Source: a virus. Taken from it: a stretch of 36,413 nucleotides of DNA. The position numbers were made by a program, and so were the translations under genes. Shown here in pieces: positions 1-35,659 of this stretch. The DNA lies in IMG/VR virus record IMGVR_UViG_3300010327_000704, positions 1-36,413 of that record; one strand, 5' to 3'. The number at the start of each line of letters is the position of its first letter. Position 1 is the first letter of the stretch. The notes beneath the pieces are model-generated. The model was not told the origin of the DNA. It did no database searches and saw nothing but the letters and a program-made list of their open reading frames with translations.

Positions 1-2
1 GG

Positions 3-1526
3 ACGGGAGACCATACTTCGGTTGCGGGGCCCCCAAAGCACCTTGAAACCCTTATGAACCATGCAGGGGAGATAATGCTAGCAGCCCAACAAAACATGTC
101 CGGCGGCCAGGCAATGAGCCTCTGGAATGTTTTCGTCGCACCATTCGCCGCGGGGCGGTCGTATGATGAGATTAAACAGGCTGTGCAAATGTTCATATTC
201 AACCTTAACATGGCATACGCTGCTAGGGGGAGCCAAGTCCCATTCACAAGCATAAACTTGGAATTCGCAGTACCAGATTTCCTATCTGATGTGCTGGCTT
301 ACGGGCCCCGGGGCGAACGCGTGGGAGTATATGGGGACTTCTATGATGAGGCCAGGCAAGTTACAAGGGCATTTACAGAAGTGCTCCTGGAGGGTGACGC
401 TGATGGCAAACCCCATTTATTCCCAAATACAATATATGTCATCCGCAAAGAAACCCTAAAGGGCGAATTCGATGATGACCTGCACCTTGCACATGAATTA
501 GCCGCCAAATACGGGACAGCATATTTCGTTAACATGTTAGCAGATTACAGGGGTGAAATGTCCAATTATATGGGTTGCCGAACACTTCTCTCAGATAATT
601 GGACGGGGAACTGGGAACAAGACTGTCTTAGAACAGGGAACCTAGCATATGTAACGTTAAATCTTCCAAGGATCGCATACCAGGCAAAGGATGACGATGA
701 GATATTCGAGTATATTGACGAATACCTTGACCTTGCAATTAACATACTAGAATTAAGAAGAGAACAAGCACTCAAATGCCTAAACGACTATAATCTATTA
801 CCATTCCTCACACAAGAAATCGAGGGCGAAAACTATTACAGGATAGAAAATGCAACCCTAAGTTTCGGATACGTTGGTCTGAACGAGATGCTAGAATACC
901 ACACTGGAGACGACATCACAAACCCGGATGCCAACAAATTCGGACTCAAGGTAATAAGATACTTGTACGAACGCGCCCAGGAACTCAAAAAGGAAACTGG
1001 CTTGCGCTGGAGCGTACTGCAAACACCCGCTGAGAGCACAGCTCACAGATTCGCGATGCTAGACAAAAAATCCTATAAGGAGGCTATAGTACAAGGAAGG
1101 GAAAACTCATACTATTACACGAACTCTAGTCACGTGCCAGTAGACGCTGAAATAGACATGATAGAAAAGATAAAAATAGAAGAGGAGTATCATCCAATAA
1201 CACCCGGAGGGCATATATTCCATGCATGGCTTGGGGAAGCCCAACCAGACACACAAGCACTCACAAGATTCACAAAAAACATCTGCAAAAACACAAAGAT
1301 AGGATTCTGGGATTACAGCAGCGCACTAAGTTTCTGCCTCAAATGCAAAACCCTCATGAGAGGATTGCAAGAAACCTGCGCCAACTGCGGCGAAAAAGAA
1401 GAAGTAGAATGGTACGATCGTATAACAGGATACGTCCAGCAGGTTGGAAGGGCTAAATCATCCAGTGGAGGCTGGAACCCGGGTAAAAGACAAGAATTAC
1501 TCGACAGAAAGCGCTACAACTTATAG
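3..1526 (+). CDS. nrdD: Anaerobic (class III) ribonucleoside-triphosphate reductase, 5'-truncated by the window; probably a host gene
   Basis: Frame is open back to the window edge (TGDHTSVAGPPKHLETLMNH...). Has finger-loop YMGCRT, LRTGNLAYVTLNLPRIA, QTPAESTAHRFA, YYTNSSHVP, zinc ribbon CLKC...CANC and glycyl-radical motif RITGY. Confidence 0.96.
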   Translation, partial: TGDHTSVAGPPKHLETLMNHAGEIMLAAQQNMSGGQAMSLWNVFVAPFAAGRSYDEIKQAVQMFIFNLNMAYAARGSQVPFTSINLEFAVPDFLSDVLAYGPRGERVGVYGDFYDEARQVTRAFTEVLLEGDADGKPHLFPNTIYVIRKETLKGEFDDDLHLAHELAAKYGTAYFVNMLADYRGEMSNYMGCRTLLSDNWTGNWEQDCLRTGNLAYVTLNLPRIAYQAKDDDEIFEYIDEYLDLAINILELRREQALKCLNDYNLLPFLTQEIEGENYYRIENATLSFGYVGLNEMLEYHTGDDITNPDANKFGLKVIRYLYERAQELKKETGLRWSVLQTPAESTAHRFAMLDKKSYKEAIVQGRENSYYYTNSSHVPVDAEIDMIEKIKIEEEYHPITPGGHIFHAWLGEAQPDTQALTRFTKNICKNTKIGFWDYSSALSFCLKCKTLMRGLQETCANCGEKEEVEWYDRITGYVQQVGRAKSSSGGWNPGKRQELLDRKRYNL

Positions 1527-1540
1527 TTTCCTACAAGGCC

Positions 1541-1609
1541 ATGATAATTATACAACCCATTGGAAATGTTGAGGAAGAAATACTTAAAAAAAAAGAAGGG
1601 AGGTGGTGA
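1541..1609 (+). pseudogene. Truncated N-terminus of a probable host archaemetzincin (AmzA/M54)-like gene, MIIIQPIGNVEEEILKKKEGRW*
   Basis: ATG 14 nt after the nrdD stop, with host-like A-rich codons. The first 17 aa resemble the archaemetzincin start as I recall it (M-x-I-x-I-Q-P-[IL]-G-x-V-x-x-E-[IV]-L). The reading runs into virus-like sequence at the A9 run and stops. Confidence 0.55.
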
Positions 1610-3710: not shown

Positions 3711-6287
3711 ATGATGCCATTGCTCTTGAATGAAGCCCTCAATGACAAATTGAGGCGAAAACACGGCTTAAACATCGTTTTCACGAACAAGGAGAAGCGG
3801 CCGTTACTCAAGGGATGGAACGAGTTCATAGAAAAGCCCCAGACAGACCAAGACCTCAAGAAATCGTTCCGCAGCGGATCATCGGCGTACGGCTACGTCT
3901 GTGGATGGAATGATCTGATTTGCATCGATTTCGACAACCCACTACCCTATTTCTTGTGCCAAAAAGAATTTGGAGACCGTTTCGACACCTTCACAGTCGA
4001 AACCCCGAATAGGGGTTTCCATGTCTATTTTTTTTCATCAGAATCAAATCAGAAAAAGAATATCAACACGTATAAGGACAATCTGCACGTTGAGATCATC
4101 CTGCGGGGCAATTCGCTGTGCCACGGCCGCATAGAAACCCGACGTGGCCTCGAAGAATACATCATCAAGGTGGATAAGGACATCCGCCGTGATAACACGA
4201 TAATCATGGACGTTCTTTCGTTTCTCGAGGAGACGATAGCTAAGCTCGAGTTCTTGGAGTACGAATGTGTTAAGGCGGCTCTCCGGGGAAAACCAGAGCT
4301 CAGCCACGAAGCCCGGCTAATATTCGCCAACTTCCTCGTCCGAGAACTAAAACCATCAATCGCCAGATACTTTTTCAGAAATCAGAGCGACTACAACAAG
4401 AAAACGACAGTATATCAGCTGCGATCTACGCTCTCAAAAATAGAAAAGGGCGAACTGAATCCGCCGACATGCAAGACTATGCGCAGCGTATTCAATGTAG
4501 ACGCCTCGATCTGCGAGAATTGCATACGACACGAACAGGACAAGGCCATACCAGAGAAGAAAGAGAAGCTGAGGACGATCTCAGTCGACGATCTCCTTGA
4601 GAATGTTGGATTGGCCCGGCCGAAGATCCAGACAGGCCAACACTGGGACGAGGCCGAGAAGAAACTCTATTATAGCTGGTACGACCCAAAGAAAGACGCT
4701 TTCCTCGTTCTGGGAGAGGACGGGCTTGGGGTCGGGATACACGACGACGACATCAAAGATTGGAAGAAAATGCCAGAGAACGTCCACCGAATGGAAGGAG
4801 CCAAAATTAAACCCCCAAAACGCGTCGAAGATGTTGTTCTCGGCTGCCTTGTGAAATGGGCCCATGAAGGCTTCCCAGCCGGAAAAAAGCTCACGCTCAG
4901 CAACCTATACGACCGAATCTACCAAGCCCTCAAAAAATACATCTATTTTCGATACGAAACAGAATATTCGCTTGTTTCAGCATGGATAATAGGCACATAC
5001 ATGCGCCAGGCCTTCATATGGTACCCATACCTCGTCTTTTTTGGTCTGAGGAATGTTGGAAAGTCCACAGCGATCACGGTACTCTCTCGGCTCTGCTTCC
5101 AGGGTGCGGGGGACAGCACGGGCGACAGAAGTGAAGCAGTGATATTCAGAAAGGCGTCCGGACTCAAAGGGCTCATGACAGTCGACCATTTCGAAGAAAT
5201 AATCAACAATCCCGTGAAAAACATCACATACCATCAGTTTCTCGAAAACGCCTGGTATCGGGACAACACAGTCGAAAGAATGAACGACAACTTCGACGTA
5301 GACTCATTCACGGCCAGTGTGAGCGTAGCGGTCTCAACAAGAGAGGAGAATGACGTTCTCGGAGAAAAGGGGATCGTGGTGATCATGGAGGAGGCACCTC
5401 GAAACAGCTCATATGCCGACAACTACCGAAAAATTCTCTCTGACCCCGAATTCGATGAAATCACCCGGCTAGCCCACCTCGTAGCCCTCAAATACGCCAA
5501 GGACGTCCACAACACTTATATCAACCTCAGCCAAGGCGACGGTTGGAAAATACAAGGCAGAGACTGGAACAAGATATCCCCGCTTCTGTCCATTGTCGCG
5601 GTCATCGATCAGGAAAAAGGAGAAGATTCCAAACTATTCGAAGAACTCTACGAGTACGCCGAAGAATATTCGAGAAGGAGAAAGGACGAAACCAGTGATA
5701 TCGAGGACTTGGCGCTCCAGTACATCATCGAAGAAGGCTATGACAGATACACGCTCAAGGAACTGCAAGAACACATCAAGGAGGAAATCGACCCATACAT
5801 AACGCCCCAAAAGGTCGGGCAGATCATGAAAAAACTCCTCATCACAAAACGAAAGTCGAAAAGAGGTGGTGAGACAATCTACTACATAGATCGGAAGCTC
5901 GCGACCAAAAAAGCCCTCGAGAGGGGCATACCACTCGCAAGCGACCACATATACACCCACGAAACCCAAGAAACAGAAGAAACCACTAAAAAAACCGAAG
6001 ATGGGGCCACAAGGCCTGAGGACGGTGAAGGGACGGTGGAATTCACCGACATCGAAGAGAAAGCCCTTAGGATCGTCTACGCCGAGATGGACAACCCCAA
6101 CCAAGCATGCGGATACCAAACGCTGCTATCCGGGCTGGCAGCACATGACGTCATCTTGGACGAAGCCCAGCTCGCAATAGAGCGTCTCAAAGCCCGAGGT
6201 TACCTCCGGGAGGAGGTAATAGGTCATATTCACATCCCAGAAGAAAAAATAGCCAAACTAATCGACATGGGGGTGATCAAGATATGA
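3711..6287 (+). CDS. Replication protein: AEP primase-polymerase + PriL-like Fe-S domain + P-loop helicase-like domain
   Basis: AEP motifs LICIDFD and ETPNRGFHVYF. Four-Cys region ECV...PPTC...ICENC. Walker A GLRNVGKST and Walker B-like MTVDHFEE. Probable winged-helix segments at the C-terminus. Confidence 0.82.
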   Translation: MMPLLLNEALNDKLRRKHGLNIVFTNKEKRPLLKGWNEFIEKPQTDQDLKKSFRSGSSAYGYVCGWNDLICIDFDNPLPYFLCQKEFGDRFDTFTVETPNRGFHVYFFSSESNQKKNINTYKDNLHVEIILRGNSLCHGRIETRRGLEEYIIKVDKDIRRDNTIIMDVLSFLEETIAKLEFLEYECVKAALRGKPELSHEARLIFANFLVRELKPSIARYFFRNQSDYNKKTTVYQLRSTLSKIEKGELNPPTCKTMRSVFNVDASICENCIRHEQDKAIPEKKEKLRTISVDDLLENVGLARPKIQTGQHWDEAEKKLYYSWYDPKKDAFLVLGEDGLGVGIHDDDIKDWKKMPENVHRMEGAKIKPPKRVEDVVLGCLVKWAHEGFPAGKKLTLSNLYDRIYQALKKYIYFRYETEYSLVSAWIIGTYMRQAFIWYPYLVFFGLRNVGKSTAITVLSRLCFQGAGDSTGDRSEAVIFRKASGLKGLMTVDHFEEIINNPVKNITYHQFLENAWYRDNTVERMNDNFDVDSFTASVSVAVSTREENDVLGEKGIVVIMEEAPRNSSYADNYRKILSDPEFDEITRLAHLVALKYAKDVHNTYINLSQGDGWKIQGRDWNKISPLLSIVAVIDQEKGEDSKLFEELYEYAEEYSRRRKDETSDIEDLALQYIIEEGYDRYTLKELQEHIKEEIDPYITPQKVGQIMKKLLITKRKSKRGGETIYYIDRKLATKKALERGIPLASDHIYTHETQETEETTKKTEDGATRPEDGEGTVEFTDIEEKALRIVYAEMDNPNQACGYQTLLSGLAAHDVILDEAQLAIERLKARGYLREEVIGHIHIPEEKIAKLIDMGVIKI

Positions 6288-6751: not shown

Positions 6752-6914
6752 CGGCACGATCAGCATAAAAGTCAACAAAACAGCCATGGAACAATACCTC
6801 GAGCAGATGGAGCTCGTGAGACTTTCATTAACCAGGAAACGAGAATACGAGGCGGCCATAATCCTAGATGACTTCCTCGAACTCCTAAAATGCAAAATGA
6901 AGAAAAAGAGCTGA
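6741..6914 (+). CDS. Small hypothetical protein (57-60 aa)
   Basis: Track start is 6732 (GTG); ATG 6741 has AAGGTGG upstream. Last gene of the rightward arm. Confidence 0.6.
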   Translation: MKNNGTISIKVNKTAMEQYLEQMELVRLSLTRKREYEAAIILDDFLELLKCKMKKKS

Positions 6915-7134
6915 TAAAATGTAAAAAAAAAGAAGAACATAGGAGGCCCTAAGTCCACCCCGCAAAGGTCAAGATAACGCCTGAAAGATCCAAAAAAAAA
7001 AAGTTTTATACTGATTCCCTTTTCTCTCTCTTTTTTTTCATGTGCAGAGCATGTAATGGAACGTGATACAATATTCACCGCCTATGATCCGATACGACCG
7101 CCTATAATGATAAGCCATGCCGTTATATGCCCCT
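6915..7134. terminator. Convergent terminator/intergenic region between the early and late arms
   Basis: A9 (6923-6931) and A11 (6992-7002) act as T-runs for the minus-strand operon; T8 (7031-7038) serves the plus strand. Confidence 0.6.
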
Positions 7135-7434
7135 TTAGGGAGCCAAAGCCGGCGGATCCCCATCACCCCACCTCTCATAACTCCTTTTGAAAATTCGCAG
7201 AATCAACGGCAAGTACATGTAGTCATCATCATGAATTTGAATCTGAAGATGCTCCTCATCCGACGAGAAGTGGACCTGAGCCCCAACCAGGATCGCTGCA
7301 AAGTTAAGGATATCACAAATCTCTTGATTTGTTCGGAACACCCACGGCTTGCTCCGTATGAACCATCGGAGCATTCTTTCGAAGTATTGGACTGTGGCTT
7401 CGCCTTCTAGGTCGATGATCATCGCCATCTCCAT
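7135..7434 (-). CDS. Hypothetical protein (99 aa), last gene of the late operon
   Basis: AGGAGG SD upstream of ATG 7434; same orientation as the late operon. Confidence 0.7.
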   Translation of the reverse strand: MEMAMIIDLEGEATVQYFERMLRWFIRSKPWVFRTNQEICDILNFAAILVGAQVHFSSDEEHLQIQIHDDDYMYLPLILRIFKRSYERWGDGDPPALAP

Positions 7435-7488
7435 ACACTCTATCCTCCTGATTATAGTCTGTTTTTTTGGAATTCTGCTAAGGGGAGG

Positions 7489-8370
7489 CTAATCTTCGAA
7501 GTCAATCTCTGAAAACAGTGGGATATGCACAATACTCCAGAAATCCGACGCAAGATTTAGATCGAGATACCTATAGCTGAGATAACCATACCCGCCGTCC
7601 CCCCAATCCTCACCCCAACTATTCCGGATCACCAAGGCTTCTTTCCGGTCGTCGTAGCCCACAGCGAGCACTGCATGGCCGCCCGCAAGCACGTCGTCAG
7701 CCCCGGGCGGCTCGATAAAACCATTGTCAGCCGCTTGCTCAATAGCCTTCCGATAGACGAGGAAACCGAAGAGGATTGGTTGCCCGGCGGCCAGATGCTT
7801 CTTCAAGTCACCAAGCACCTTTCCTTGCTTTCTATATTGTTCTTCGTAGTTGTACCATGAATCTATCGAGAATTCATCGGCCAATCCGTAAACGTAGACG
7901 TCATAATCTCTGTCGAAGCGGTTGGGGTTGTATTCTGTCCCGAATTTGGGATCTTCCTCTGGGGCTCCGAAACGGTGCAGAGCCCGCATAGTATCCTTTA
8001 TCGATGATCCAACATCACCCTGGGGTGTTCCCATGAGAATGCGGCTATGTTTGTATATGAATAGCCGTGATGGCGTTCGAGACCATGAGGATCCGGTGTT
8101 CTGCTCGTACCATCGCCGCTGGTAGTATTCGAGGGCTGCTGCGGCCGTCTGAGCCGTGCAAGAACCAATATGTCCCTGATCATACACCGGCGGAAAATGT
8201 TCTCTGAGATCTACACGATCCGGCAATGTAGATGTGTCCTCTGGGACTTCTGTGTCCGTAGCATCGAAAAGAAAGCATCTGACGCTTTCTAGGGCCGTCT
8301 CATGCTTCTTGTATTTGGAGGGGATCCATCCTCTCAGGGAATAGGTTCGTCCTGCGTGTCGAATTTCCAC
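7489..8370 (-). CDS. Papain-family (C1A) cysteine peptidase, candidate endolysin
   Basis: DQGHIGSCTA (oxyanion Gln + catalytic Cys), GGHAVLAVGY (His), IRNSWGEDWGDGGYGY (Asn); prokaryotic xylellain-like layout; no signal peptide visible. Confidence 0.93.
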   Translation of the reverse strand: MEIRHAGRTYSLRGWIPSKYKKHETALESVRCFLFDATDTEVPEDTSTLPDRVDLREHFPPVYDQGHIGSCTAQTAAAALEYYQRRWYEQNTGSSWSRTPSRLFIYKHSRILMGTPQGDVGSSIKDTMRALHRFGAPEEDPKFGTEYNPNRFDRDYDVYVYGLADEFSIDSWYNYEEQYRKQGKVLGDLKKHLAAGQPILFGFLVYRKAIEQAADNGFIEPPGADDVLAGGHAVLAVGYDDRKEALVIRNSWGEDWGDGGYGYLSYRYLDLNLASDFWSIVHIPLFSEIDFED

Positions 8371-8448
8371 TCTCAGACACCCCTTCCCTCGGACCCTTTT
8401 TTTTTGCTATAAGCTTCTAGTGTGAGCCGTTTCACCATCTGGCGTATC

Positions 8449-16935: not shown

Positions 16936-19020
16936 CTAACAGGTTTTTATCACGGTCAGACCAGGACGGGATGCAGTCGTTCGGAAACCGCGATCGAAGC
17001 CGTATTCACGATAGGGGACGTCTACCCATTGGCCGTTTTGCATATACTGGACCGTACGGTGGCGTGGGGACTCGGCTGTCGTGTACTGGATGATCCGCGC
17101 CTTGAAGCCGGCTTGGCACAGTTTTTGGAAGAGATATTCGCTCATGGCCCAGCAGTCACCCCAACCATTCTTCACAAGGCACTGTGCGTCCGAACAGCCG
17201 AAGGCGTGGCGGTATTTCGATGCTTCGGTGAGTATGGAGGCGAGCGTGCCCTGATCACCGCCCCCAGCCTGGCCTTCGCCCCCACCAGAGGATTTGGTCT
17301 CCGGTTTCCATAGGGCTAGCTCGAGGCTTGTATCGAAGCCATCCGGGCCGAGCTTGTGCGAAATGCCCTTCAAGTAGAGTTCATCCTTGTATTCGTCTGT
17401 TTGGTTGTTGATGTGCACCCAACGGCCGGGGAAAAACTCCGGGTCTCCCAGAACCTCGCACGTGACAGCCTCTGAGGAATCCACGCGCTGTAACGTCCTC
17501 AGAATCTTTTTTCCTTTTTTTCGGGCTTCACACGGGCTCAGATCCGGCCAGTTCAACTCGAGACGTCCCATCTCGCCATACTTTTCCCAGTCCTTGTCCA
17601 GCACTTCAACGACCTCTCCGCCCTTGCATGTGATCTTGAGGGCCGCTACGATCGGCGCTTTCCCCTCAGTCATCTCAAAAGACTCCTCCAACATATTCCA
17701 ATCAGATAAGGCGAAGAGGATCTTGGAATCGTCCTCAAAGGGCTCTTTGATCTCGTGAACGTAGCATGTGTCGCCCTTCACAAAGACGTGCGTATCTTCC
17801 TCAAATTCCTCCAAGGCCTTCAATATAATGTCCCAATACGTCATTTCCTGCGTGGAAGTGGTGGTTTCACCTCCGCTGCTCTCAGAGCCGGGCTCGCCGG
17901 TGACGGTTTCTCCACACGTCGTCTTCAGGACTCTTCTGTGAGATCCGTCGTGTATTGTCCCGCAGCCGCAGTAATCTCTGTCGCAGCTGCAGCAGAAGAA
18001 CGTCCCCTCCGGGAAAATGTTAGATCCGCCCTGGGCAGTGCTCCCCGAGCCAGGATGCCCCGCACACTTGTCCACATTACAATCTGGGGGACAACGGTTA
18101 TATTGGATGTCAGTGGAACCACATTCGCATGGCCCGGTGACAGTGCAGACCGTATACTTCCCAGATCCCGATTTCGGGAGTGGACAGTCGCTTCTCCCGC
18201 ACGAGTTTTGGCACGGCCCTGAGGCATACCCACCTCCTGTAGTTCCCCCGGCTGTTGTTTCCTCTTTGAACGAGACCTTGGCCTCGAGGATCTCTTTTCG
18301 CAGTTTGATATTGGGTTTGAGCCCAGCCTTTTTTATGACGTCTTCTAGGACTCCTTTGACTGTTTTATCGACGTAGGATTCTGTGGTGGCCTTTTGTTCG
18401 AGTAGGACGCCCGTGTCAGCGAATTGGACTGTTATGTCGCGTTTTCCTTTTTTGACCTCGGCGATGAAGGCGGAGAAGGCGTCTCGGAGGATCCTCGTGG
18501 TTTCTTTCCCAGTTTCAGGGTCTGGGACTGGGGAATCATATTCGTAGCCAATCCGAACGTTGAGTTCGTCCCCTTGCATCAGCCGTTGAAAGCGCTGTTT
18601 TGTGTACGGAACCACGAGGGATCCTGTTCCGGTCGATTCGGTGATGCTTTTGTTGAAATCGACTGATTGAATCGCTGTGAGCTTCCATTGTTCTTTTATT
18701 TTGCACTTATTGAGATATTTCATGAGAGCGACGCTGGAAATGTTGTTGAGAAGATATTGGGCGATCGTGGGCTTAGTTTGCTCTTCCGAAGCCTCCTCAG
18801 TGGCGGTTTCTTCGGTGGTAGTCTGAGTGGTTTGTTCCTCTTTTGATTTCTTTTTGTCATCCTTTTTCTGTTGAGATTCTTTCTGTTGTTTTTGTTCGGT
18901 GATATCGAGCTTGAATGGCTCTTTCACGCACCACTCACGCTTGATCAGCTCGATTTCGATGACTGGCCTCGCCCCAGCCCGTAGTGGGATGTTTCGAGGA
19001 GTGATATACGTCACAGCCAC
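16936..19020 (-). CDS. Baseplate hub (gpD/gp27/XkdQ-like) with a Cys-rich insertion and a C-terminal transglutaminase/papain-like domain
   Basis: Hub motifs ELNVRIGY, DKTVKGVLEDVIKKAGL, EVLGDPEFFPGRWVHI...YLKGISHKLGPDGFDTSLEL. 15 Cys in aa 270-369. C-terminal GDCWAMSEYL...ARIIQY...RHRTVQ...WVDVPY. Confidence 0.8.
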   Translation of the reverse strand: MAVTYITPRNIPLRAGARPVIEIELIKREWCVKEPFKLDITEQKQQKESQQKKDDKKKSKEEQTTQTTTEETATEEASEEQTKPTIAQYLLNNISSVALMKYLNKCKIKEQWKLTAIQSVDFNKSITESTGTGSLVVPYTKQRFQRLMQGDELNVRIGYEYDSPVPDPETGKETTRILRDAFSAFIAEVKKGKRDITVQFADTGVLLEQKATTESYVDKTVKGVLEDVIKKAGLKPNIKLRKEILEAKVSFKEETTAGGTTGGGYASGPCQNSCGRSDCPLPKSGSGKYTVCTVTGPCECGSTDIQYNRCPPDCNVDKCAGHPGSGSTAQGGSNIFPEGTFFCCSCDRDYCGCGTIHDGSHRRVLKTTCGETVTGEPGSESSGGETTTSTQEMTYWDIILKALEEFEEDTHVFVKGDTCYVHEIKEPFEDDSKILFALSDWNMLEESFEMTEGKAPIVAALKITCKGGEVVEVLDKDWEKYGEMGRLELNWPDLSPCEARKKGKKILRTLQRVDSSEAVTCEVLGDPEFFPGRWVHINNQTDEYKDELYLKGISHKLGPDGFDTSLELALWKPETKSSGGGEGQAGGGDQGTLASILTEASKYRHAFGCSDAQCLVKNGWGDCWAMSEYLFQKLCQAGFKARIIQYTTAESPRHRTVQYMQNGQWVDVPYREYGFDRGFRTTASRPGLTVIKTC

Positions 19021-28374: not shown

Positions 28375-29382
28375 CTATGAAACCTCTGATATGAGCGCTG
28401 CGACGGCAGAATTCACATCAGAGTATGTACAGTCGCCCCTGAATGTGAGAACGTGCTCCACAACCCTCTCTCGGGGTCTGCGGTCTGACTCGACTGTGAT
28501 CTCCCTGAACACGCCCCACACCATGCTGGCAGGCCTTGCGAGGAGAGCCTGTTTCCCAGTGAGGCCAGTGGCGGTTTCATCGTCGAGTGATGGCACGTGT
28601 CTGACCGGTATGCCGTCGTAGCTGAGTTCACCGCGTCCGAGGAGGGCCTCGTCACCCAGTGAGGTTTCTCTGCCGGCTATGATGTCTCTATAGGCTGCAT
28701 AGGTCTCCCAGTCGACATAGAAACGCAGTTCTTCGCGTGGTGTGAGATATCTCTTTGGCATGGCCTCTTCCATGGCTGCGAACATGTCTATGGGGAAATC
28801 GCTGCCATTGGGGTCGAAATCAGGGCTGGCTCCGTCGTGGGTGTATCCGTAGACTTTATTCGCGGCTTTCTTGATCCAACCGTCCAGAGTTTTCAGTAGG
28901 GGGTTTCCTGATGGTATGGTTAGGCTCGTGTCGCCTCTGAGGAAGACTGTTTCGAGATCGAGGGATGCAGCGTTCGCCATGAGCTCGGTGACGGTCTGCT
29001 CGAAGTCCGGGCCCTCAATGGTGTCTTCGAGGGTGTTGAAATCGATCGAAACGACCATCACGAATTCCTGCGCGTTGAGGACGTTGCCTTGGGAAACTAC
29101 GGTGAATTCGTCGGTGCCCTCTTCGCCAGGGATTATCTTGTCCGCCCCTACTCTGCCGGGGTACAGATAGCCTCTCGGCGCGTCGATGGCGCTTATCTCG
29201 GTTTCGAAACTGTTCATCTTCCGTAGTGTGGCCTCCTCAAGGACGGGGCTTCTTTCTTCGATGACTCTGATGAATTTGTCGAGCTGCTCCATGGCCTTGA
29301 GGCCGCCGGAGAGAGAATCGTCGTCCACCAGCTTGAAGACGCCCTTTGAAGATATTATGTCCAGGTATTCGCGTAGATCCAT
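28375..29382 (-). CDS. Major capsid protein (HK97 fold)
   Basis: GGL..EQLDKFIR, DLETVFLRGD, LDGWIKKA, AMPKRY, YDGIPV, REITVESDR. SD GAGGTG favours ATG 29382 (track start 29397). Confidence 0.93.
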   Translation of the reverse strand: MDLREYLDIISSKGVFKLVDDDSLSGGLKAMEQLDKFIRVIEERSPVLEEATLRKMNSFETEISAIDAPRGYLYPGRVGADKIIPGEEGTDEFTVVSQGNVLNAQEFVMVVSIDFNTLEDTIEGPDFEQTVTELMANAASLDLETVFLRGDTSLTIPSGNPLLKTLDGWIKKAANKVYGYTHDGASPDFDPNGSDFPIDMFAAMEEAMPKRYLTPREELRFYVDWETYAAYRDIIAGRETSLGDEALLGRGELSYDGIPVRHVPSLDDETATGLTGKQALLARPASMVWGVFREITVESDRRPRERVVEHVLTFRGDCTYSDVNSAVAALISEVS

Positions 29383-29409: not shown

Positions 29410-30030
29410 TTATCTTTTGATCTTTCTTCCGAATTTGTCTCGGCCCAGTCGGCTATAGAAGTCGTCTGGTTTGGGCTTTTTGGAGGATTCCTTCAGTTTC
29501 TTGGTTGTTTCGCCGCCAAACTTCTCCTCAACCTTTTCGAGGCGTTTGGCGAATTCTTCGATCTGTTCTCTGATTGTTTCGGTGGCTTCTTTTGTGACCT
29601 TGTCTGAGACGATCTCAGCGAGCTTCTTGAATGTGTCCGCGTCTTCGTGTCCCTTTTTGACTTTCTGCGTGTCTTCTTCCTTCTCTTCTTCGTCCTTTGG
29701 CTTCTCGTTGGCTTTCTCGGGCTCTGGGACAGGATATCTCTCCTCCTGAGCCCTGAGATATTCTATGATTTGGCGGGCTGCATCGCGAACCTCGGAGGGG
29801 AGGTTTTCATCGTCGACGATCGCTTGCAGCTGCTCAACGACTTTGGCGATGGCATTCTCCTTCTTCTCTGTCTCAGAAGGTGGTGCGTAGGAGTATCCCA
29901 TTACAGCGGCTTCAACGGCCGCTATGGCCTTGTCGATGGCTTGGCGGGCTGCGACGAGCAGATCGAGAACGTCCTCGGATCCGCCAGTCTCTTCGGCCTC
30001 CTCCTTCTCTTCTTTGATGTTTTTTGTCAT
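29410..30030 (-). CDS. Probable nested scaffold protein (206 aa) from an internal in-frame start
   Basis: GAGGTGA lies 5 nt before in-frame ATG 30030 (MTKNIKEE...), right after the protease domain. Confidence 0.55.
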   Translation of the reverse strand: MTKNIKEEKEEAEETGGSEDVLDLLVAARQAIDKAIAAVEAAVMGYSYAPPSETEKKENAIAKVVEQLQAIVDDENLPSEVRDAARQIIEYLRAQEERYPVPEPEKANEKPKDEEEKEEDTQKVKKGHEDADTFKKLAEIVSDKVTKEATETIREQIEEFAKRLEKVEEKFGGETTKKLKESSKKPKPDDFYSRLGRDKFGRKIKR

Positions 30031-33000
30031 GGGGTTCACCTCTTCGTCCATTTTGAGAATTACCCACCGTGCGTCTGGCACGGCAGGATTGGAAACGAGA
30101 CTGACCTCGAAAACCTCAAGATCTCTGAGTTCTTGGGGTTCTTGGTCTTGGGGCTCGTCATCGGCCGTCTTCATCCGATCAGGAGCTTGTGGGCAACTTT
30201 TGCATATTCCTCCGATTGAAACGCCTCTGATCTCTCCTTTTTTGATCATACGCCACAGTTCCGGGTTATGTATCTTGAAGCCGATCATCCACGTCCCCGG
30301 CGGCAACTCATCACCATCCGCGAGCTCGTAGGGCTGTCTGAGAATGTAGGATTCTACGATTGTGACGTCGCTGCGGGGAAGTGGTGCTTCGTGCATGAAA
30401 TGGACGCTCTGGTAGTTTGCCATGAAATTATGGGCTGTACGCTCGATTTCCTCGGCAGAGATAACGTCGCCGTGCTTATCCACGCGGTTAGGTACGAGGG
30501 CGGGGGCCAGGGCGAAACGCTCTTCATCATCGATTTTCACGATTCTAGCGTAGATCTCGGCTCGCTTCTCCTTGCCCTGCTCTTCGTCTTTTGGTTTCCA
30601 TTCGGTTACGTCGATTAGCTTGGGTTTCTCGCCGGGTTTGGCCCATACAAGCCATTTCTGTCCTTTCTGCTTCAATTCCTTGACAACGTCTTCTAGCCTG
30701 TTCTTTTCGGCGTAGGGCGTCTGATCTTCGGGCTTTTCAAGGAGCCAGATCCTACGGCCTGCCACTGGAGCGTATTCGATCAGATAACGCCCCGTCAGTT
30801 TTTCGCCGTGTAGGAAGATTTCGAAGAAATGCTCTCTCCAGACGCCGATTTCGTAGGTTCCAGAGTCTATCAGGAAGAATTTGCTCCATTTATGGGTTGT
30901 GGAGCCAACATCCCGCGGTGGGACGACTAATGGCTCGTCTTTTCCAACCTCGAGCCATTCCTTGGGTTGTGGGAGTTTGAACGCGCCTTGGAGTTTTCTA
31001 TTTCCGAGGTTGTAGAGTAGGCTGCCTCCCGCCTCTCTATTCTCCTTTGTATCGCCGAGAAAAGCCGTGAAACCCCATAAGTGGTCGTCCACCGAGAATC
31101 TGAGATCGGCATGCAAGCTATGATCAGTTTCAAGGAGCTCCTCATTCGATTTCTTGGTATCCTCTTCCGAGAGGCCTCTCCAGTGATGCTGAACGACGAA
31201 CTGGCCTTTCCCGGAGGGTGGGAACTCCTTGTACCAGTTTTCAGCCCAATACTCTGCCGCGGCCTCGCTTCTCGTGTCAATCTCTTCGCCGTCGTCTTCT
31301 TTGATCAGCTCCTCGATTCCCAATGGGCCGTGGAGAGCGTAGATCATCTTGAGCTCTTGGCTCATGTCTTCGAGGTCGCCTGGGGTTTGTTCGTAGAGAC
31401 TGGTGTATAGGGCTTTGTAGATTTTCATTTCCTTGGTTGTGGGCTCGTATTCTTTGAGGAAGTTGTATTTGGTCTTGTTTTTTGTCCAGTCGGAGTGGAG
31501 GAGGGTCTGTATGAGGTCATCGTCTACTATGGGGTCTTGTTTCTTGGTCTCGGCTGGTATTCTGGTGTCGTTGAGTATGCCAGCCCTTCTCGCGAGGTCG
31601 ACAGCCTGTCCAGCAGTGTATGGTTCTTTTCTTTCTTTGTCGATGTCTATTGGGACGGCGGCTGTCCAGCTCAGCTCATCCCCGTCCTTAGTTTGGCGGA
31701 TCATGATCTCCTGAGGCTGTACTGTGATGATGTCGCCGGGTTTGGCCTTGAACGGCGCGTTCATCGTATATTTCATATTCACGTACGTTTTGCCTCGGAA
31801 TTCGACGACATTCGCGAATGGGAGTTCACCTGGTAGGAGGCCGCAGTCGAAGGAGTACGTTCCGTTCTTGTTTTTCCGAGCCTCCAGTACGATGGCTTTC
31901 AGTTCGGCTACTTTCTTGATCTTGGCGGTGGAATCGTTTGGGCCCTCGTGGTAGGGTGCTGTTTCATCCTTGAGGACGATACCCTCGCTGAGCTGGTAAT
32001 TGCCAAGCTCTTGGAAGGCCTTAGCAAGATCTTCGAGGCTTCGGATTTTCATTTGGTGTGAGATGTCGAAATGTTTGCTGTTTTTGAGGTGTTGGTCGTG
32101 GAATCGTTCGAGGATTTGTCTGCGTTCGCGTAGCGGCTTCTTTCTGAGATCGCCGCCGGCTCTGTCCCAGTACAGGATGTCGAAGGCTGTGAAGACTGGA
32201 TAGACGTCCTTGGGGAGCTCTGGGTTGTCGGCTGTGAGGGACATGACGTTCAGGCGGGGTAGTCGTTCGTCGCCTCTGTATAGGCCTACGTCGCCGTCGA
32301 GGATGAAATCGGCGCCGATCTGTTGAATGGCCTTGATGAGTTCGGGTATCTGATCTTTCCGTTCTTTCTGAGCGTCCTCGAAGAAGATGCTCACCTTGTC
32401 GCCTTTCTTTTGGATGATGGCTCTGAATCCGTTGAGCTTGTTCTCTGCCACAGCCTCAGGATGCTTTTCAAGCCATGTTATGAGCTCTTCGGGTTTGAAG
32501 GCCTCGGTCCCGGCGTAGTAGAATCCCATTCTGGGTTTGGATGGTGTGAAGTGCGTGATCGGTCCCCATTCCTTTCTTAGGATTGGGATTTTTTCTTTGG
32601 CTTTGGATGCGAGTTCGGATAGGTTATCGAGGGCCTTCCAGAAAGGGTTCACGATCTTCACGTCCCTTTTGTCACTCCTGACGAGCGCGAGGTCGTATAT
32701 GGGCACGTAATTGGTAAAGGCGCCCTGAGGATTGTTTATCAAGTGTATGGGCTTTTCTTTGTCTGGTGTGAGAGTGAGGCGGATTGGAACATAGACGCTT
32801 TCAAATTTAATCTGATAAGAGTCGCCTTTTAGGTCGGCCCTCACCAGAATGTCGATGTCGTCGTAATTTGGCCTTCGAACGGCCGACCCAACCAGATCCA
32901 CGAATTCTGGGACGAGTATGATCTTTTCGGGGAGTTCGTCGAGGTCAACCGGCAAATTCGAGGCGTCTTTGAGCTTTTTATCGAGTTCATCACGTATATG

Positions 33001-33192
33001 ATGTTGGAGGCTTCTTCGGGCCATCTCCGCGACTATCAGATGGTGAGCGTTGACCACATCCTCCAAATTGATGTTTTCGCCGCCTTGCTCCCTGATCTTG
33101 GGATACAGTTGGTGGCAGCGGCGGTGGAGATTGAGAAGCTCATCATCAGGGGCTCTTTTCAGGTTTTGGGGGTTTACCTCACGTATTTTCAT
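29410..33192 (-). CDS. Multidomain head protein: helical N-domain + Pol-beta-type NTase + ATP-dependent ligase + LigD-type 3'-phosphoesterase + XkdF/S78-like prohead protease + scaffold
   Basis: Numbered on the track's 1316-aa ORF. NTase: LVGS...DDIDIL (aa 156-172). Ligase: ENKLNGFR, FILDGD, FTAFDIL, PLRERRQIL, EGIVLKD, KIKK (aa 305-483). Phosphoesterase: FVVQHH...LHADLR...IDSGTYE...FLHGEKLTGRY (aa 721-859). Protease: LVPNRVDKHGDVI...HFMH...GTWMIGFK...IKKGEIRGVSIGG...EVSLVSNPA (aa 950-1095). Charged helical tail. Likely start is ATG 33192 with a GAGGGG SD. Confidence 0.85.
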   Translation of the reverse strand: MKIREVNPQNLKRAPDDELLNLHRRCHQLYPKIREQGGENINLEDVVNAHHLIVAEMARRSLQHHIRDELDKKLKDASNLPVDLDELPEKIILVPEFVDLVGSAVRRPNYDDIDILVRADLKGDSYQIKFESVYVPIRLTLTPDKEKPIHLINNPQGAFTNYVPIYDLALVRSDKRDVKIVNPFWKALDNLSELASKAKEKIPILRKEWGPITHFTPSKPRMGFYYAGTEAFKPEELITWLEKHPEAVAENKLNGFRAIIQKKGDKVSIFFEDAQKERKDQIPELIKAIQQIGADFILDGDVGLYRGDERLPRLNVMSLTADNPELPKDVYPVFTAFDILYWDRAGGDLRKKPLRERRQILERFHDQHLKNSKHFDISHQMKIRSLEDLAKAFQELGNYQLSEGIVLKDETAPYHEGPNDSTAKIKKVAELKAIVLEARKNKNGTYSFDCGLLPGELPFANVVEFRGKTYVNMKYTMNAPFKAKPGDIITVQPQEIMIRQTKDGDELSWTAAVPIDIDKERKEPYTAGQAVDLARRAGILNDTRIPAETKKQDPIVDDDLIQTLLHSDWTKNKTKYNFLKEYEPTTKEMKIYKALYTSLYEQTPGDLEDMSQELKMIYALHGPLGIEELIKEDDGEEIDTRSEAAAEYWAENWYKEFPPSGKGQFVVQHHWRGLSEEDTKKSNEELLETDHSLHADLRFSVDDHLWGFTAFLGDTKENREAGGSLLYNLGNRKLQGAFKLPQPKEWLEVGKDEPLVVPPRDVGSTTHKWSKFFLIDSGTYEIGVWREHFFEIFLHGEKLTGRYLIEYAPVAGRRIWLLEKPEDQTPYAEKNRLEDVVKELKQKGQKWLVWAKPGEKPKLIDVTEWKPKDEEQGKEKRAEIYARIVKIDDEERFALAPALVPNRVDKHGDVISAEEIERTAHNFMANYQSVHFMHEAPLPRSDVTIVESYILRQPYELADGDELPPGTWMIGFKIHNPELWRMIKKGEIRGVSIGGICKSCPQAPDRMKTADDEPQDQEPQELRDLEVFEVSLVSNPAVPDARWVILKMDEEVNPMTKNIKEEKEEAEETGGSEDVLDLLVAARQAIDKAIAAVEAAVMGYSYAPPSETEKKENAIAKVVEQLQAIVDDENLPSEVRDAARQIIEYLRAQEERYPVPEPEKANEKPKDEEEKEEDTQKVKKGHEDADTFKKLAEIVSDKVTKEATETIREQIEEFAKRLEKVEEKFGGETTKKLKESSKKPKPDDFYSRLGRDKFGRKIKR

Positions 33193-33218
33193 ATTATCCC
33201 CTCGGGGGAGGGTTGGGG

Positions 33219-34154
33219 TCATATTGGTGTGATTTGGAGCCAATCTGATCCTGGTGGGGCCACAGGAACCCAAGTGCATCGGCAATTCGGGTGCTGCGGG
33301 ATCAGATCCTTCACTTTTGGGTCTGCGACCCTTAGAACGGCCCCATCCCATTTTCGGCATCGTCTACAGACTTTTGAGTCCCGGGCAGTGAGATACATGA
33401 CTTCCTGGACCCCAGCCGCCGTGCACGCCTCCAGTTTGGCTAATTTCGAAGCCGCGGATAATTCTGTTCGGAGAACTCGGGAGAAGAGATACCGGGTGCT
33501 CTTGTACGCTGAGTCGACTGGATTGAAGAGTTTCATGATGTTGGCAGCTATTTCGTCTGCTGTTGCACGTGTGGCGAGACCGTCAGCGATAAAAGAAGCA
33601 GCCAGACCACCCAAGCGTTTTGGGAGCGTTTCGAGGGCTGGGGATGCCATTTCAGCTATTCGGACGTTTAGGGCGGCTAATTCGGGCTCTGGAAGCCTAA
33701 GGCCCGATGGTGTCAGATTCACGTATCTCAGAATCTTCTCGAGTGTTTTCTCGTAGGTGGCGGCGTACTGGGTTTGCATTCTTCGAAGGACGAGTTCTCT
33801 GGGCTCTCTGAGGTGGTATGCGAGTAGTGCGATGATCGCACTGATCAGGAGGATGTCGTCGGTGTCGAGGCCTTGTTCTTCGAGTTCTCGACGGATTTCC
33901 TCGTCGATGGCGTACTCTTGTTTGGCCACAGCCTTCTTGTCCCTCCATTCATGGATTAGACGACTGAGGTCGTTCTGTGCTCTGGCTATTGCTTTGTCGA
34001 AGGCTTGTAGGAGTCTGTCAGTCTCTTGGATGATCTCTGAGCGCGTGGCATGGTATTCTACAGTGGTGTGTTCGATTGGTTGGGATTTGAGGCCGTCCCT
34101 GAGAAGAGTGATTTTTCGGATGACGTCGTCGAGCTCGTGTATGATTCCCTTCAT
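33219..34154 (-). CDS. MuF/SPP1 gp7-like minor head protein
   Basis: RVLRTE..., YLTARDSKVCRRCRKWDG, IPQHPNCRCTWVP; follows the portal. Confidence 0.92.
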   Translation of the reverse strand: MKGIIHELDDVIRKITLLRDGLKSQPIEHTTVEYHATRSEIIQETDRLLQAFDKAIARAQNDLSRLIHEWRDKKAVAKQEYAIDEEIRRELEEQGLDTDDILLISAIIALLAYHLREPRELVLRRMQTQYAATYEKTLEKILRYVNLTPSGLRLPEPELAALNVRIAEMASPALETLPKRLGGLAASFIADGLATRATADEIAANIMKLFNPVDSAYKSTRYLFSRVLRTELSAASKLAKLEACTAAGVQEVMYLTARDSKVCRRCRKWDGAVLRVADPKVKDLIPQHPNCRCTWVPVAPPGSDWLQITPI

Positions 34155-35659
34155 TGTTCGTCCTTCTCAATTTTCTCTATGATCCGTTCCTTGAGGGTTT
34201 CGAGAGTATCCACGACCTTGTCGATGATTTCAGCTTCCACGGGCGCTTCGACTGGCTTCCCGCTGATGTAGTGGGCGTCCATGAGTGGATGATCAGACTT
34301 TTGGATGTTGTACTTGTGTGAGAAGCGTTCTATGATCTCATTTGGCGTCATGGCCCCCACCTCGAAGAGCTTGAGGCAGTTCTGGAGGTCGTAGTCGTCT
34401 TCTTCGATGTCAGCATTCTCAAATCGTATCGCCCAATCATGAGTCGAGAAGCCCCTCTCATCCCGCATAACGCATTGGTTCAGAAGCTCTTCCCACATTC
34501 GTTGGCGTTGAGCGATGATGCCTTTCTTGTAGTTGATTCTTGCGATTCTGGCGGTGTTCCCGCCGAGGGAGCCGATCTGCATCACCGCCACACGATACGG
34601 GTCAACACCATGAGCCGAAATGATCTCATCACGGTTATCCTGGCCGTACATCCGAAACGAGGCTTCCTTCTCCTCCACAGCCAAACGCTCAAATTCAACC
34701 TTAATTTCGCCAGAGGACTCCCCAGGGATCGCAAGAATGAGGGGAGTGTGCGGATTCTTCACCAATTCCTTGAAATGGCGTTCTATAGCCTCCTGCAAGA
34801 CCGTGGTGCCAGTAGGATTCCCTTCCGCGTCAAGAATCTCCTCATCAACATAATTTCCTGAAATAAAGACCGCATAGGCTGGCACCCCAAAATTCTTGAA
34901 AAATGACAAGTTATACTCTTTCCGGGCTTCCTCGGCCGCGATCGCGTGAATAGCCGGAATATAGTCTGGGATGCCATAGTAGGAGGAGCGTGAGGAGTAA
35001 TTATGGAGGATGACGAGCTCGTTGGCTGCGATGTCACCTGGGAGACTTCCGAGAGCGTGCTCTTCGCCCGTGTCCATATGCACGTCCTTCTCATAGCCGA
35101 AACGCTTGAACCAGCGATACTTTATACCGTCCCAGCTCTGGGCGTACTTGTTTTCGCTCTTGTGGATCCGTACGGTGGCTGCCGGCACATGCTCCAACGC
35201 CTTGACCCTTCCATGGTGGACGCCGCCGTATCTGATGATCTCAAGGCAGGCCCAGCCCACCTCCTCGAAATCTTGTGCAGCACGGACGAGAACGCTCTCC
35301 AATGATGGATAGAGATTGGAAAAGAAGCCCTCTATTTCTTTCCGTTTGTCGTCGTCGGCCTCCGGCGTAGTGGGGACTAATTCCCAGCCCTGTCCGACTG
35401 TATCGATTGCCTTGGTGGCGCAGCAGCGAGCATGGAACGTATTCTTCTCCGATAAGCTTGCCAGGCCGAATGGGTTGTATGGTGGCTCTATTAGCCCGCG
35501 TCGCACGTACTTGCCGGCGAAGGCATCTCCTCGGAGTCGCTTGGACTCCCCTCGGATCTCGTACTGCTTCAAGACCGAGTTCGGGACGAACCTGCCGTTC
35601 TCGAGGACGACGCCGAACGGTATGCGCTTCTCCGCTTTCATCTTCACGGCCTCACTCAA
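34151..35659 (-). CDS. Portal protein (PBSX/HK97-like)
   Basis: IEPPYNP..L, CATKAIDTVGQGW, YYGIPDY...YNLSFFKNFGVP, GAMTPNEI. Confidence 0.94.
   Translation of the reverse strand: MSEAVKMKAEKRIPFGVVLENGRFVPNSVLKQYEIRGESKRLRGDAFAGKYVRRGLIEPPYNPFGLASLSEKNTFHARCCATKAIDTVGQGWELVPTTPEADDDKRKEIEGFFSNLYPSLESVLVRAAQDFEEVGWACLEIIRYGGVHHGRVKALEHVPAATVRIHKSENKYAQSWDGIKYRWFKRFGYEKDVHMDTGEEHALGSLPGDIAANELVILHNYSSRSSYYGIPDYIPAIHAIAAEEARKEYNLSFFKNFGVPAYAVFISGNYVDEEILDAEGNPTGTTVLQEAIERHFKELVKNPHTPLILAIPGESSGEIKVEFERLAVEEKEASFRMYGQDNRDEIISAHGVDPYRVAVMQIGSLGGNTARIARINYKKGIIAQRQRMWEELLNQCVMRDERGFSTHDWAIRFENADIEEDDYDLQNCLKLFEVGAMTPNEIIERFSHKYNIQKSDHPLMDAHYISGKPVEAPVEAEIIDKVVDTLETLKERIIEKIEKDEQ

Follow-up and report, generated by a model that had tools for sequence, protein, structure and literature searches.

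In phage T4, the internal proteins and Alt bear a capsid targeting sequence that is cut by gp21 and are injected with the DNA, and in phage P1 the Dar proteins are taken into the prohead. African swine fever virus (ASFV) encodes Pol X, a proven polymerase, together with a ligase and an AP endonuclease, each as a separate gene. The passages of Iyer et al. (2017) on polyvalent proteins describe multi-enzyme phage polypeptides, some of which end in an assemblin-like head peptidase, with a processing that is thought to accompany virion assembly (PMC5512222). Here we describe a protein of this general kind in a provirus of a Methanobacteriaceae archaeon. The stretch analyzed, 36,413 nucleotides of IMG/VR record IMGVR_UViG_3300010327_000704 (‘the window’), carries on its minus strand, at 29410..33192, a single gene for what we call the polyprotein, in which the following are joined from N- to C-terminus: a predicted minimal Pol-β-like nucleotidyltransferase (NTase), an ATP-dependent DNA ligase, a LigD-type 3′-phosphoesterase (PE) barrel, a serine protease of XkdF type and, last, a scaffold tail. 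There are four catalytic domains, the MuF and portal genes lie directly upstream, and the C-terminal protease is assemblin-like, which is the architecture of a polyvalent protein. Our confidence in this architecture, and in the competence of the predicted active sites, is high; it exceeds that which we attach to the complete delivery chain proposed below.

The gene comprises 1,260 codons plus a stop, as judged from the list of open reading frames (ORFs) and its translation, a Shine-Dalgarno site, and the N-termini of homologs. The uninterrupted minus-strand frame is longer (29410..33360) and holds the whole fusion; residue numbers used here are those of this longer product (P0001), counted from the upstream ATG at 33360. 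The real start is Met57, the ATG at 33192: a Shine-Dalgarno-like GAGGGG (33198..33203, minus strand) stands 5 nt ahead of it, and the resulting N-terminus is common to all full-length homologs. One biogas-fermenter metagenome and two further runs each yielded a near-identical protein (1 residue different), intact at 1260 aa, and in these three other assemblies the neighbors are also the same: portal, MuF, polyprotein gene, and a 335-aa capsid gene. Because the same protein was assembled intact in three other samples, and because homologs of 1260 aa at 58% identity are collinear with it, an assembly or frameshift artefact and a missed stop can be ruled out. A single-ORF fusion had been proposed in an earlier inspection of this DNA (the sequence-only reading), and that proposal is borne out. 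All five domains lie where that reading had put them, on the evidence of profiles, models and conservation: the NTase, for example, had been assigned to 32656-32928, and its core is placed here at 32680-32925 (residues 146-227). The extent of the C-terminal part required one correction: the protease is in place, and the scaffold tail continues to 29413, beyond the coordinate of 30052 from which the fusion had been thought to begin.

The ligase adenylation domain, with a conserved N-terminal lead-in, occupies residues 267-482 (31915..32562, minus strand), of which residues 297-482 match PF01068 (E = 1.9e-21; 77.1 bits, where the cut-off is 26.2). Its matches in the PDB are all DNA ligases, headed by that of A. 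fulgidus (3gde; 2.8e-20 with the family profile), and then Lig1, Lig3, Lig4, LigD and the ASFV enzyme. We could assign motif I (Lys308-Leu-Asn-Gly), motif III (Asp355-Gly-Asp357), motif IIIa (Asp394), motif IV (Glu459-Gly460) and motif V (Lys480/Lys482). Across 143 ligase domains of the family, Lys308, Glu459 and Gly460 are invariant (143/143), Lys480 is present in 142 and Asp394 in 138, and Arg369 and Arg413 are nearly invariant. The sequence-only reading had expressed two reservations, namely that motif I reads KLNG and motif III reads DGD; both features are real, and both hold across the family. The first of these concerns is answered by the prevalence of Asn over Asp at this position (KxNG in 85 and KxDG in 54 of the 143 domains) and by the KRNG of the ASFV ligase (6imj), which aligns with KLNG. 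The second acid of motif III is Asp in 62 domains and Glu in 58.

The ligase lacks an N-terminal DNA-binding domain and appears to be of the minimal adenylation-plus-OB (oligonucleotide/oligosaccharide-binding) type. Its C-terminal domain (residues 483-600; 31561..31914, minus strand) is a block of ~120 residues conserved in all homologs, part of which falls within the coverage of phrog_114 (‘ATP-dependent DNA ligase’, residues 291-551). No OB model in Pfam matched residues 483-600, and we call the domain OB-like from its position and conservation. Behind it comes a variable linker (residues 601-689; 31294..31560, minus strand), delimited by alignment, Pfam domains and BLAST coverage, at the slot in which relatives carry uracil-DNA glycosylase (UDG) or other insertions. 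The idea that the linker is itself a decayed UDG, taken from that slot in the relatives, was rejected: the segment is too short, and it is helical.

The PE domain follows (residues 690-925, with the barrel at 718-875; 30586..31293, minus strand), with near-invariant His726, His750-x-Asp752-x-Arg754, Lys795, Trp802 and Glu847. An AlphaFold2 model of residues 690-925, built from an alignment of 56 homologs, has a mean predicted local distance difference test (pLDDT) score of 95.9. In a Foldseek comparison of this model with the PDB, LigD-PE structures fill the top seven rows (E = 6.7e-7 to 9.4e-5; probability 1.0); they come from Korarchaeum, Methanosarcina, Pseudomonas and Methanocella. VIA-align superposes the model upon 3p43 with Z = 13.2 (root-mean-square deviation 2.4 Å; 123 of 124 residues), upon 3p4h with Z = 12.8 (1.9 Å; 117 of 118 residues) and upon 3n9b with Z = 11.4; the first unrelated chain in the same list has a Z of 3.5. 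Model and archaeal PE structures together confirm the LigD-type phosphoesterase that had been read from the motifs, and we regard the identity of the predicted fold as solid.

Profile comparisons of sequence reach the same family at lower scores. PF13298 (LigD_N) gives 15.6 bits on the polyprotein, below its cut-off of 31.1, and aligns with the C-terminal third alone; one relative (P0029) has a precomputed PF13298 match. A profile of eight family members matches just PE chains in the PDB, such that His750-x-Asp752-x-Arg754 aligns to the HYDxR of 5dmp, 3p43 and 3n9b. The PDB profile of the whole family reaches PE at E = 0.17 only, and hhalign of the PE alignment against LigD (P0058) yielded a probability of 8.5%, with the C-terminal strands alone aligned, which is too weak to have been used.

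Structural and functional work on the P. aeruginosa PE offers a guide to the active site: Mn is held by His42, His48 and Asp50, and these three residues together with Arg52, His84 and Tyr88 are required for both activities (PMC3300020). In our family, His750, Asp752 and Arg754 are found in 147 of 148 PE domains, and the metal triad plus Arg overall in 143-147 of them. His726, in a QHH strand before HxDxR, is matched to His42 by position; an insert of ~20 residues separates this first His from HxDxR. The EDHPxxY segment is replaced by Lys795-L-P-Q-P-K-E-Trp802, in which Lys (147/148), Gln (119/148) and Trp (148/148) are conserved and there is neither His nor Tyr; this replacement, already noted as PQPKEW in the sequence-only reading, is real and holds across the family. 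The domain thus belongs, in our view, to the PE fold superfamily and has an active site that is conserved within the family yet altered. Very likely it is an active metal phosphoesterase, but LigD does not reveal its exact substrate.

The N-terminal region was likewise modeled with AlphaFold2 (pLDDT 83), and it divides into a helical hairpin at domain residues 1-78 and a core at 90-171. The hairpin (P0001 residues 57-134; 32959..33192, minus strand; pLDDT 93-97) contains near-invariant Glu112 and Arg116, which in domain numbering are Glu56 (178/185 domains) and Arg60 (179/185); its structural matches are merely generic helical hairpins (Z ~7). The core (residues 146-227; 32680..32925, minus strand) has the topology strand-helix-strand-helix-strand-strand, with Gly158-Ser159 after strand 1 and Asp168-x-Asp170 on strand 2, which is the layout of a Pol-β NTase. 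This signature is near-invariant (Gly in 184, Ser in 177, and the two Asp residues in 184 and 183 of 185 domains), as is the Arg that follows it (Arg174). Candidates for the third carboxylate are Asp223 (153/185) and Glu187 (Glu or Asp in 132/185); His206 is more conserved (162/185).

A shape search of the ESM Atlas with this N-terminal domain returned Pol-β NTase clusters (PF18765, PF01909) in eight of ten rows, over residues 92-169, at TM-scores by query of just 0.23-0.26, and an Atlas feature search returned a small viral ‘nucleotidyltransferase family protein’ with a score of 0.94. In Foldseek, the MNT antitoxin rows from the PDB are weak (E = 0.3 or worse), and nothing was found at E ≤ 0.001 in either the PDB or BFVD. 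No NTase family in Pfam matched residues 57-290 even at E = 10, the PDB sequence profile of the whole family gave no NTase match, and the lists from a wide VIA search and a second look were filled by L29-like helical hairpins with Z ~7, which is in the noise range. Near-invariant motifs and shape matches nevertheless support the Pol-β-type GS...DxD NTase of the sequence-only reading, without a significant match in the PDB or Pfam; on the model, the domain is probably a minimal Pol-β-fold NTase, and an active one. We do not adopt the label of polymerase: the structural relatives of the domain are confined to minimal NTases of MNT type, and for some of these the substrates are proteins.

At the other end of the polyprotein stands the XkdF/S78-type prohead serine protease (residues 939-1105; 30046..30546, minus strand), with Asp961, His990 and Ser1048 as its predicted catalytic residues. 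PF14550 matches residues 939-1054 (94.4 bits versus a cut-off of 24; E = 7e-27) and PF04586 matches with E = 3.9e-4; the Asp is conserved in 105, His990 in 104 and Ser1048 in 104 of 106 domains, and residues 941-1105 are 37% identical to the head maturation protease of psiM100 (E = 5e-27). The XkdF-like S78 protease of the sequence-only reading is upheld on all three counts. An acidic coiled-coil scaffold region extends from residue 1111 to residue 1316 (29413..30030, minus strand), which in our alignment is present in the four closest homologs only; phrog_3017 (‘head maturation protease’) covers residues 931-1292. The polyprotein ends in LGRDKFGRKIKR (29413..29448, minus strand), a candidate capsid-docking motif that is conserved in three homologs (P0003, P0006, P0011) and is identical at 8 of 12 positions to the last 12 residues of the psiM100 protease. 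Because the C-terminal part matches the psiM100 protease in both domain and tail, we read the last ~380 residues as an ordinary head protease domain with its C-terminal tail, and the ~880 N-terminal residues as added cargo.

Complex prediction with the capsid protein and the last 96 aa of the polyprotein gave a median score of 0.41, against 0.00 for the best control, with at least 39% of contacts agreeing between runs and a partner pLDDT of at least 52. We grade this as weak support: in calibration, a score this high was attained by 58 of 80 solved complexes and 2 of 110 mismatched pairs, and the range up to 0.60 contained just 7 of those 80 complexes together with both of the mismatches.

Another observation to emerge from this region concerns a possible second product. 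An internal Shine-Dalgarno sequence, GAGGTGA (30036..30042, minus strand), lies just past the protease domain, 5 nt before an in-frame ATG at 30030 (Met1111). The 58%-identical gene on contig L002 (at about 6100-6140) has the same GAGGTGA with the same 5-nt spacing, and a GTG at the homologous codon. Such conservation suggests a nested, scaffold-only product of 206 aa.

The polyprotein gene is embedded in a head module, between MuF and capsid genes as the sequence-only reading had it, which Pfam and PHROG matches and the same order in other assemblies bear out. The portal gene (34151..35659, minus strand; PF04860, E = 1.5e-13) precedes that for the MuF-like minor head protein (33219..34154, minus strand; PF04233, E = 6.6e-13), which is directly upstream of the polyprotein gene; directly downstream is the gene for an XkdG-like major capsid protein (28375..29382, minus strand; phrog_1623, E = 1.6e-64), the best deposited relatives of which are those of psiM100 (38%), psiM2 and Drs3. 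Regarding the start of this capsid gene, other assemblies and the alignment with L002 make ATG 29382 (335 aa) more likely than the TTG at 29397 given by the ORF finder.

The same architecture is widespread in metagenomes. A word-indexed search yielded 57 relatives of 765-1655 aa, and an exhaustive HMMER search with the N-terminal domain (Ndom) alone yielded at least 373 cluster representatives at 50% identity. We sorted 210 collected proteins by domain content with our own hidden Markov models (HMMs), cut from the family alignment: 57 are Ndom-Lig-PE-XkdF, a further form with scaffold accounts for 21, and 33 are Ndom-Lig-PE and lack the protease. Additional modules are inserted in some relatives: S-adenosylmethionine (SAM)-dependent methyltransferases (PF08241, PF13489), a Dam methylase (PF02086), UDG (PF03167), a metallo-β-lactamase-fold domain and a 2H domain (PF13563). 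The search of viral databases that had been recommended thus uncovers a large metagenomic family, and the bins that carry names are mostly bacterial (Synergistaceae, Bacillota, Chloroflexota, Dehalococcoides, Nitrospinaceae, Thermogutta, Leptospira), with one Methanothrix bin.

Members that are not fused to the protease are still found in a head module, as three cases illustrate. On a Chloroflexota-binned contig (L006, 10334-12766), the gene directly after Ndom-Lig-PE encodes 810 aa, the last 300 of which form a capsid domain (Phage_capsid_4, E = 1.9e-33); the capsid protein there would seem to be fused to ~500 residues of unassigned sequence. On a 175-kb Dehalococcoides-binned contig (L004, 3458-10109), the relative is 1317 aa long and contains a Dam methylase insertion; ahead of it are a MuF gene with a fused Peptidase_M90-like domain and, as a gene of its own, one for a metallo-β-lactamase-fold protein. 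The third case, the archaeal virus ANMV-1, is the best deposited match: its 866-aa protein AJP62006.1 (KP703175), annotated as ‘ATP-dependent DNA ligase’ and ~25% identical to the polyprotein, is matched in the same order by our family HMMs for the NTase core (5.4e-8), the ligase (7.5e-33) and PE (1.6e-13). In ANMV-1 (L016, with both genes in 1913-5800), it comes directly after a gene annotated as ‘MutT-like phage hydrolase’, which Pfam matches to Phage_portal_3 (E = 3.2e-22). A second, degenerate PE is possible at the C-terminus of the ANMV-1 protein. A search of 50,697 deposited phage genomes found no protease-fused member, just ligase-only matches plus ANMV-1.

Bearing in mind the position in the head module, the fusion to a protease-scaffold and the membership in the polyvalent-protein class, we consider loading into the capsid to be the best reading of this gene, and we propose the following sequence of events. 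The C-terminal scaffold tail would dock inside the assembling shell. The nested scaffold-only product would supply the bulk of the scaffold, so that only some copies carry cargo and co-assemble through the shared tail; we propose this because 100 kDa of cargo on every copy of the scaffold would crowd the procapsid. The XkdF serine protease would then cut the polyprotein, and the freed enzymes would accompany the packaged DNA, both in the head and into the next Methanobacteriaceae cell. There, PE could clean blocked 3′ ends, the NTase could add a nucleotide or a few, and the ligase could seal, such that nicks and breaks from heat damage or host nucleases would be mended before viral genes are expressed. 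That the three enzyme modules form one pathway is probable because they co-occur so regularly, and it fits the logic of LigD. We favor DNA as the substrate, given that the ligase is of DNA type and that Dam and UDG are among the modules that relatives optionally carry.

Entry into the capsid, the positions of cleavage, persistence in the virion, ejection, and DNA as the substrate in place of RNA or protein are all inferred. For the whole chain, in which cargo is loaded into the head, freed, ejected and put to repairing DNA in the next host, we estimate a probability of roughly one half; ejection and repair in the new host are its less certain links. The wider proposal, of a nick and break repair and anti-restriction machine that converged on the LigD design with a minimal Pol-β-type NTase and a PE whose active site differs in its second half, and that is borne by virions of tailed viruses of both archaea and bacteria, loaded via the protease and scaffold and ejected with the genome, is in our estimate less likely than not.

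Several points weigh against this chain of events. Fragments of scaffold and protease usually exit the head before or during packaging, so that retention of ~100 kDa of cargo is no given. The capsid-tail complex scored weakly. No polymerase is matched significantly by the NTase, whose structural neighbors are MNT-type enzymes only, and PE has no equivalents of the essential His84 and Tyr88, so its chemistry may differ. Sealing does not appear obligatory, in that ~20 relatives are Ndom-PE-XkdF with no detectable ligase. Finally, the polyprotein contains no polynucleotide kinase module, without which 5′-OH ends could not be healed, and Ku (PF02735) has no match within the window, which is a fragment of an incomplete provirus.

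Of the alternatives, the one that stands up best concerns the NTase, which may be an effector that modifies proteins or small molecules, for example by AMPylating a host defense protein, and which would merely share the delivery vehicle with the other enzymes. MNT antitoxins and minimal NTases as the sole structural neighbors would fit such a role, as would the few relatives in which the NTase is fused to XkdF in the absence of ligase and PE (P0137, P0152); furthermore, in the relevant passages of Iyer et al., Pol-β NTases of polyvalent proteins are classed among the protein-modifying domains (PMC5512222). On the other hand, the NTase accompanies ligase and/or PE in the great majority of the family, ANMV-1 included, and is always N-terminal, which suggests one pathway; we judge the effector role to be unlikely.

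A second alternative accepts entry into the procapsid and moves the site of action: the enzymes would work inside or at the procapsid of the producing cell, as quality control of nicks and ends while DNA is packaged, and would then be degraded or expelled and be absent from virions. Fusion to both protease and scaffold would put the enzymes wherever scaffold goes, and scaffold normally leaves; the late-operon position between MuF and capsid genes is equally compatible. Moreover, by established ligase chemistry, a pre-adenylated ligase could seal without free ATP. We know of no precedent, however, for repair within a capsid, and the protease-less members in head modules would lack such a route. 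Relatives also add Dam methylase and other modules that are typical of proteins thought, in the passages on polyvalent proteins, to be injected for the protection of incoming DNA (PMC5512222). We find this possibility distinctly unlikely, and prefer ejection with the genome.

It is improbable, in our view, that the fusion couples synthesis only, with the enzymes cut off in the cytoplasm for late replication, recombination or concatemer processing and never encapsidated. Many viruses do encode soluble ligases, 33 collected relatives end after PE and have no protease, and the window has RecT and a primase-helicase-like gene, i.e., a recombination and replication program. Yet the gene was never seen in a replication module: the unfused forms, too, lie between portal/MuF and capsid genes. 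Activation of such prohead proteases is generally attributed to assembly, as established in HK97-like systems, and the conserved C-terminal tail, a candidate for docking, argues for co-assembly. Quite improbable is a kit for RNA (host or viral tRNAs and mRNAs cut by defense ribonucleases) that is analogous to T4 Pnkp/Rnl1 or bacterial Pnkp/Hen1, with the NTase rebuilding 3′ ends and the class-I methyltransferases of relatives acting like Hen1: the LigD PE does work on ribonucleotide 3′ ends as well as 3′-phosphates (PMC3300020), many relatives have a generic SAM methyltransferase (PF08241, PF13489) and a few a 2H phosphoesterase (PF13563), and PHROG proteins annotated as RNA ligases are fused to the same protease (phrog_14859), but the ligase scores as a DNA ligase (PF01068 at 1.9e-21 versus RNA_ligase at 0.036) with PDB matches to DNA ligases throughout, the relatives’ extra modules include the DNA-acting Dam methylase and UDG, and there is no kinase for the 5′-OH ends that ribonucleases leave.

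The source of the window is settled: it is an integrated provirus of a Methanobacteriaceae archaeon, Methanothermobacter-like and from biogas-type samples. Bases 1..1582 (plus strand) are host chromosome, comprising the 3′ portion of nrdD and then the initial ~40 bases of a gene for a peptidase M54, and are 99.8% identical to positions 6833-8414 of a 525-kb Methanobacteriaceae contig (L011), from which we conclude that the provirus is archaeal and integrated. The match to the host ends a few dozen bases into the M54 gene, at a junction near 1582, and viral genes start there. In five contigs (L011-L015) the site is empty, with nrdD directly followed by the M54 gene, and the host flank carries archaeal genes such as that for TiaS. 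The archaeal host of the sequence-only reading is therefore borne out by flank and empty sites alike. The partial NrdD product is 100% identical to a protein (P0331) on 13 contigs, the longest of 525 kb; it is 78% identical to the Methanothermobacter wolfeii enzyme and 71-72% identical to those of Methanobrevibacter and Methanobacterium. The window lacks the right end of the provirus (CheckV 45%), so that the right junction lies beyond it.

Two other interpretations of this flank and its virus were discarded. A search with NrdD that was restricted to long proteins was misleading (the best named match was Methanocaldococcus, at ~50%); the notion that nrdD is a viral gene was rejected once a search near its own length returned the 100% match on the 525-kb contig. 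A bacterial host, suggested by the Synergistaceae bin of the metagenome-assembled genome (MAG) that holds the closest homolog, was rejected for the window in view of the host flank. That MAG contig (L002) is the closest relative, with a polyprotein at 58% and a capsid protein at 54% identity; either it is mis-binned or the head module has crossed domains.

Elsewhere in the window, the first gene inside the provirus (1613-1951) matches Cas_VVA1548 (E = 2.9e-22) with no cas genes nearby, and it is followed by recT (2729-3625; E = 1.4e-39). At the distal end of the late genes, 7489-8370 has a match to papain-family Peptidase_C1 (E = 1.4e-13). The hub protein (16936-19020) matched no pseudomurein endoisopeptidase family; its sole match is weak and YQBQ-like.

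If the proposed chain is right, a virus carries its own end-healing and sealing enzymes into the cell, which would be a new answer to the problem of surviving restriction, CRISPR cuts and extracellular damage; it would also be an archaeal-virus example, of which we found none described, in a host lineage that is defined (Methanobacteriaceae of biogas reactors). The enzymes are of interest individually: a very small KxNG ligase, a PE subfamily that combines a predicted Mn site with an invariant Lys...Trp, and a minimal NTase with a helical hairpin. A function that is assigned once would annotate hundreds of metagenomic proteins (at least 373 clusters), and the protease-scaffold anchor, as a tag of natural origin, may lend itself to filling capsids with foreign proteins.

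How, then, does the polyprotein compare with systems that are already known? Like the polyvalent proteins, it unites disparate enzyme domains in one polypeptide that is encoded beside MuF and portal genes and predicted to be delivered with DNA; the passages on polyvalent proteins contain no ATP-dependent DNA ligase, LigD-type PE or the term XkdF, their Pol-β NTases are of a firmicute conjugative-element type fused to ArdC-N, unlike that of the polyprotein, and the same passages give no archaeal virus example (PMC5512222). The likeness to LigD (POL-LIG-PE, with stand-alone archaeal PE represented by 3p43, 3p4h and 5dmp) lies in the placement of nucleotide addition, 3′-end cleaning and sealing in one unit; superposition of the PE barrels gives Z 10-13, their HxDxR metal motifs can be aligned, and the ligase appears to be of the minimal adenylation-plus-OB type. 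In contrast to LigD, the polymerase slot is filled by a minimal Pol-β-fold NTase and not by an archaeo-eukaryotic primase (AEP), and the unit forms part of a capsid-protease polypeptide whose gene lies among those for the head. The polyprotein has no AEP or LigD_Prim-Pol match, and the parallel drawn in the sequence-only reading, of LigD with a Pol-β-type NTase in the place of its AEP polymerase, is supported.

Among archaeal viruses, the head maturation proteases of two Methanobavirales members, Methanothermobacter virus psiM100 (ORF12, 406 aa) and Methanobacterium virus Drs3 (gp24, 339 aa), are encoded at the corresponding position, with portal/MuF on one side and an XkdG-like capsid gene on the other. 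Those of psiM100 and Drs3 carry no enzyme cargo, and psiM100 has just ~120 unassigned residues before its protease. ANMV-1 differs in that no XkdF protease or scaffold is fused to its protein, the NTase and PE parts of which are unannotated in the record. With T4 and P1 there is a likeness of principle, in that enzymes or anti-restriction proteins enter the prohead by means of a head-assembly signal; their cargo uses a short targeting peptide or binding to a head protein, whereas the cargo of the polyprotein is a repair set that is fused to the protease-scaffold itself. ASFV shares a minimal Pol-β-family enzyme and a KxNG ligase, a resemblance that is functional only, with a virus of eukaryotes. 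The candidate nested start of the scaffold resembles the nested C/Nu3 gene arrangement of phage lambda.

No relevant description of a head protease with a fused ligase or PE came out of a search of open-access papers, and the word ‘protease’ is absent from a review of ligase architecture (PMC7470946). The sequence-only reading had claimed novelty for this architecture in an archaeal virus. The claim stands to the extent that we found no description of the full protease fusion; it does not stand more generally, in that polyvalent proteins have been known since 2017, the family is large and mostly binned with bacteria, and ANMV-1 has the trio of NTase, ligase and PE. The principle of capsid-targeted enzyme cargo is known, then, as are polyvalent proteins, while a cargo of ligase, PE variant and minimal NTase on an XkdF protease-scaffold is something that we have not found described. 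To this principle the window adds a firmly archaeal host, a minimal version of the cargo with neither methylase nor UDG, a match of the polyprotein’s C-terminal part with the psiM100 protease and tail, a candidate nested start for a scaffold-only product, and the predicted enzyme trio in ANMV-1.

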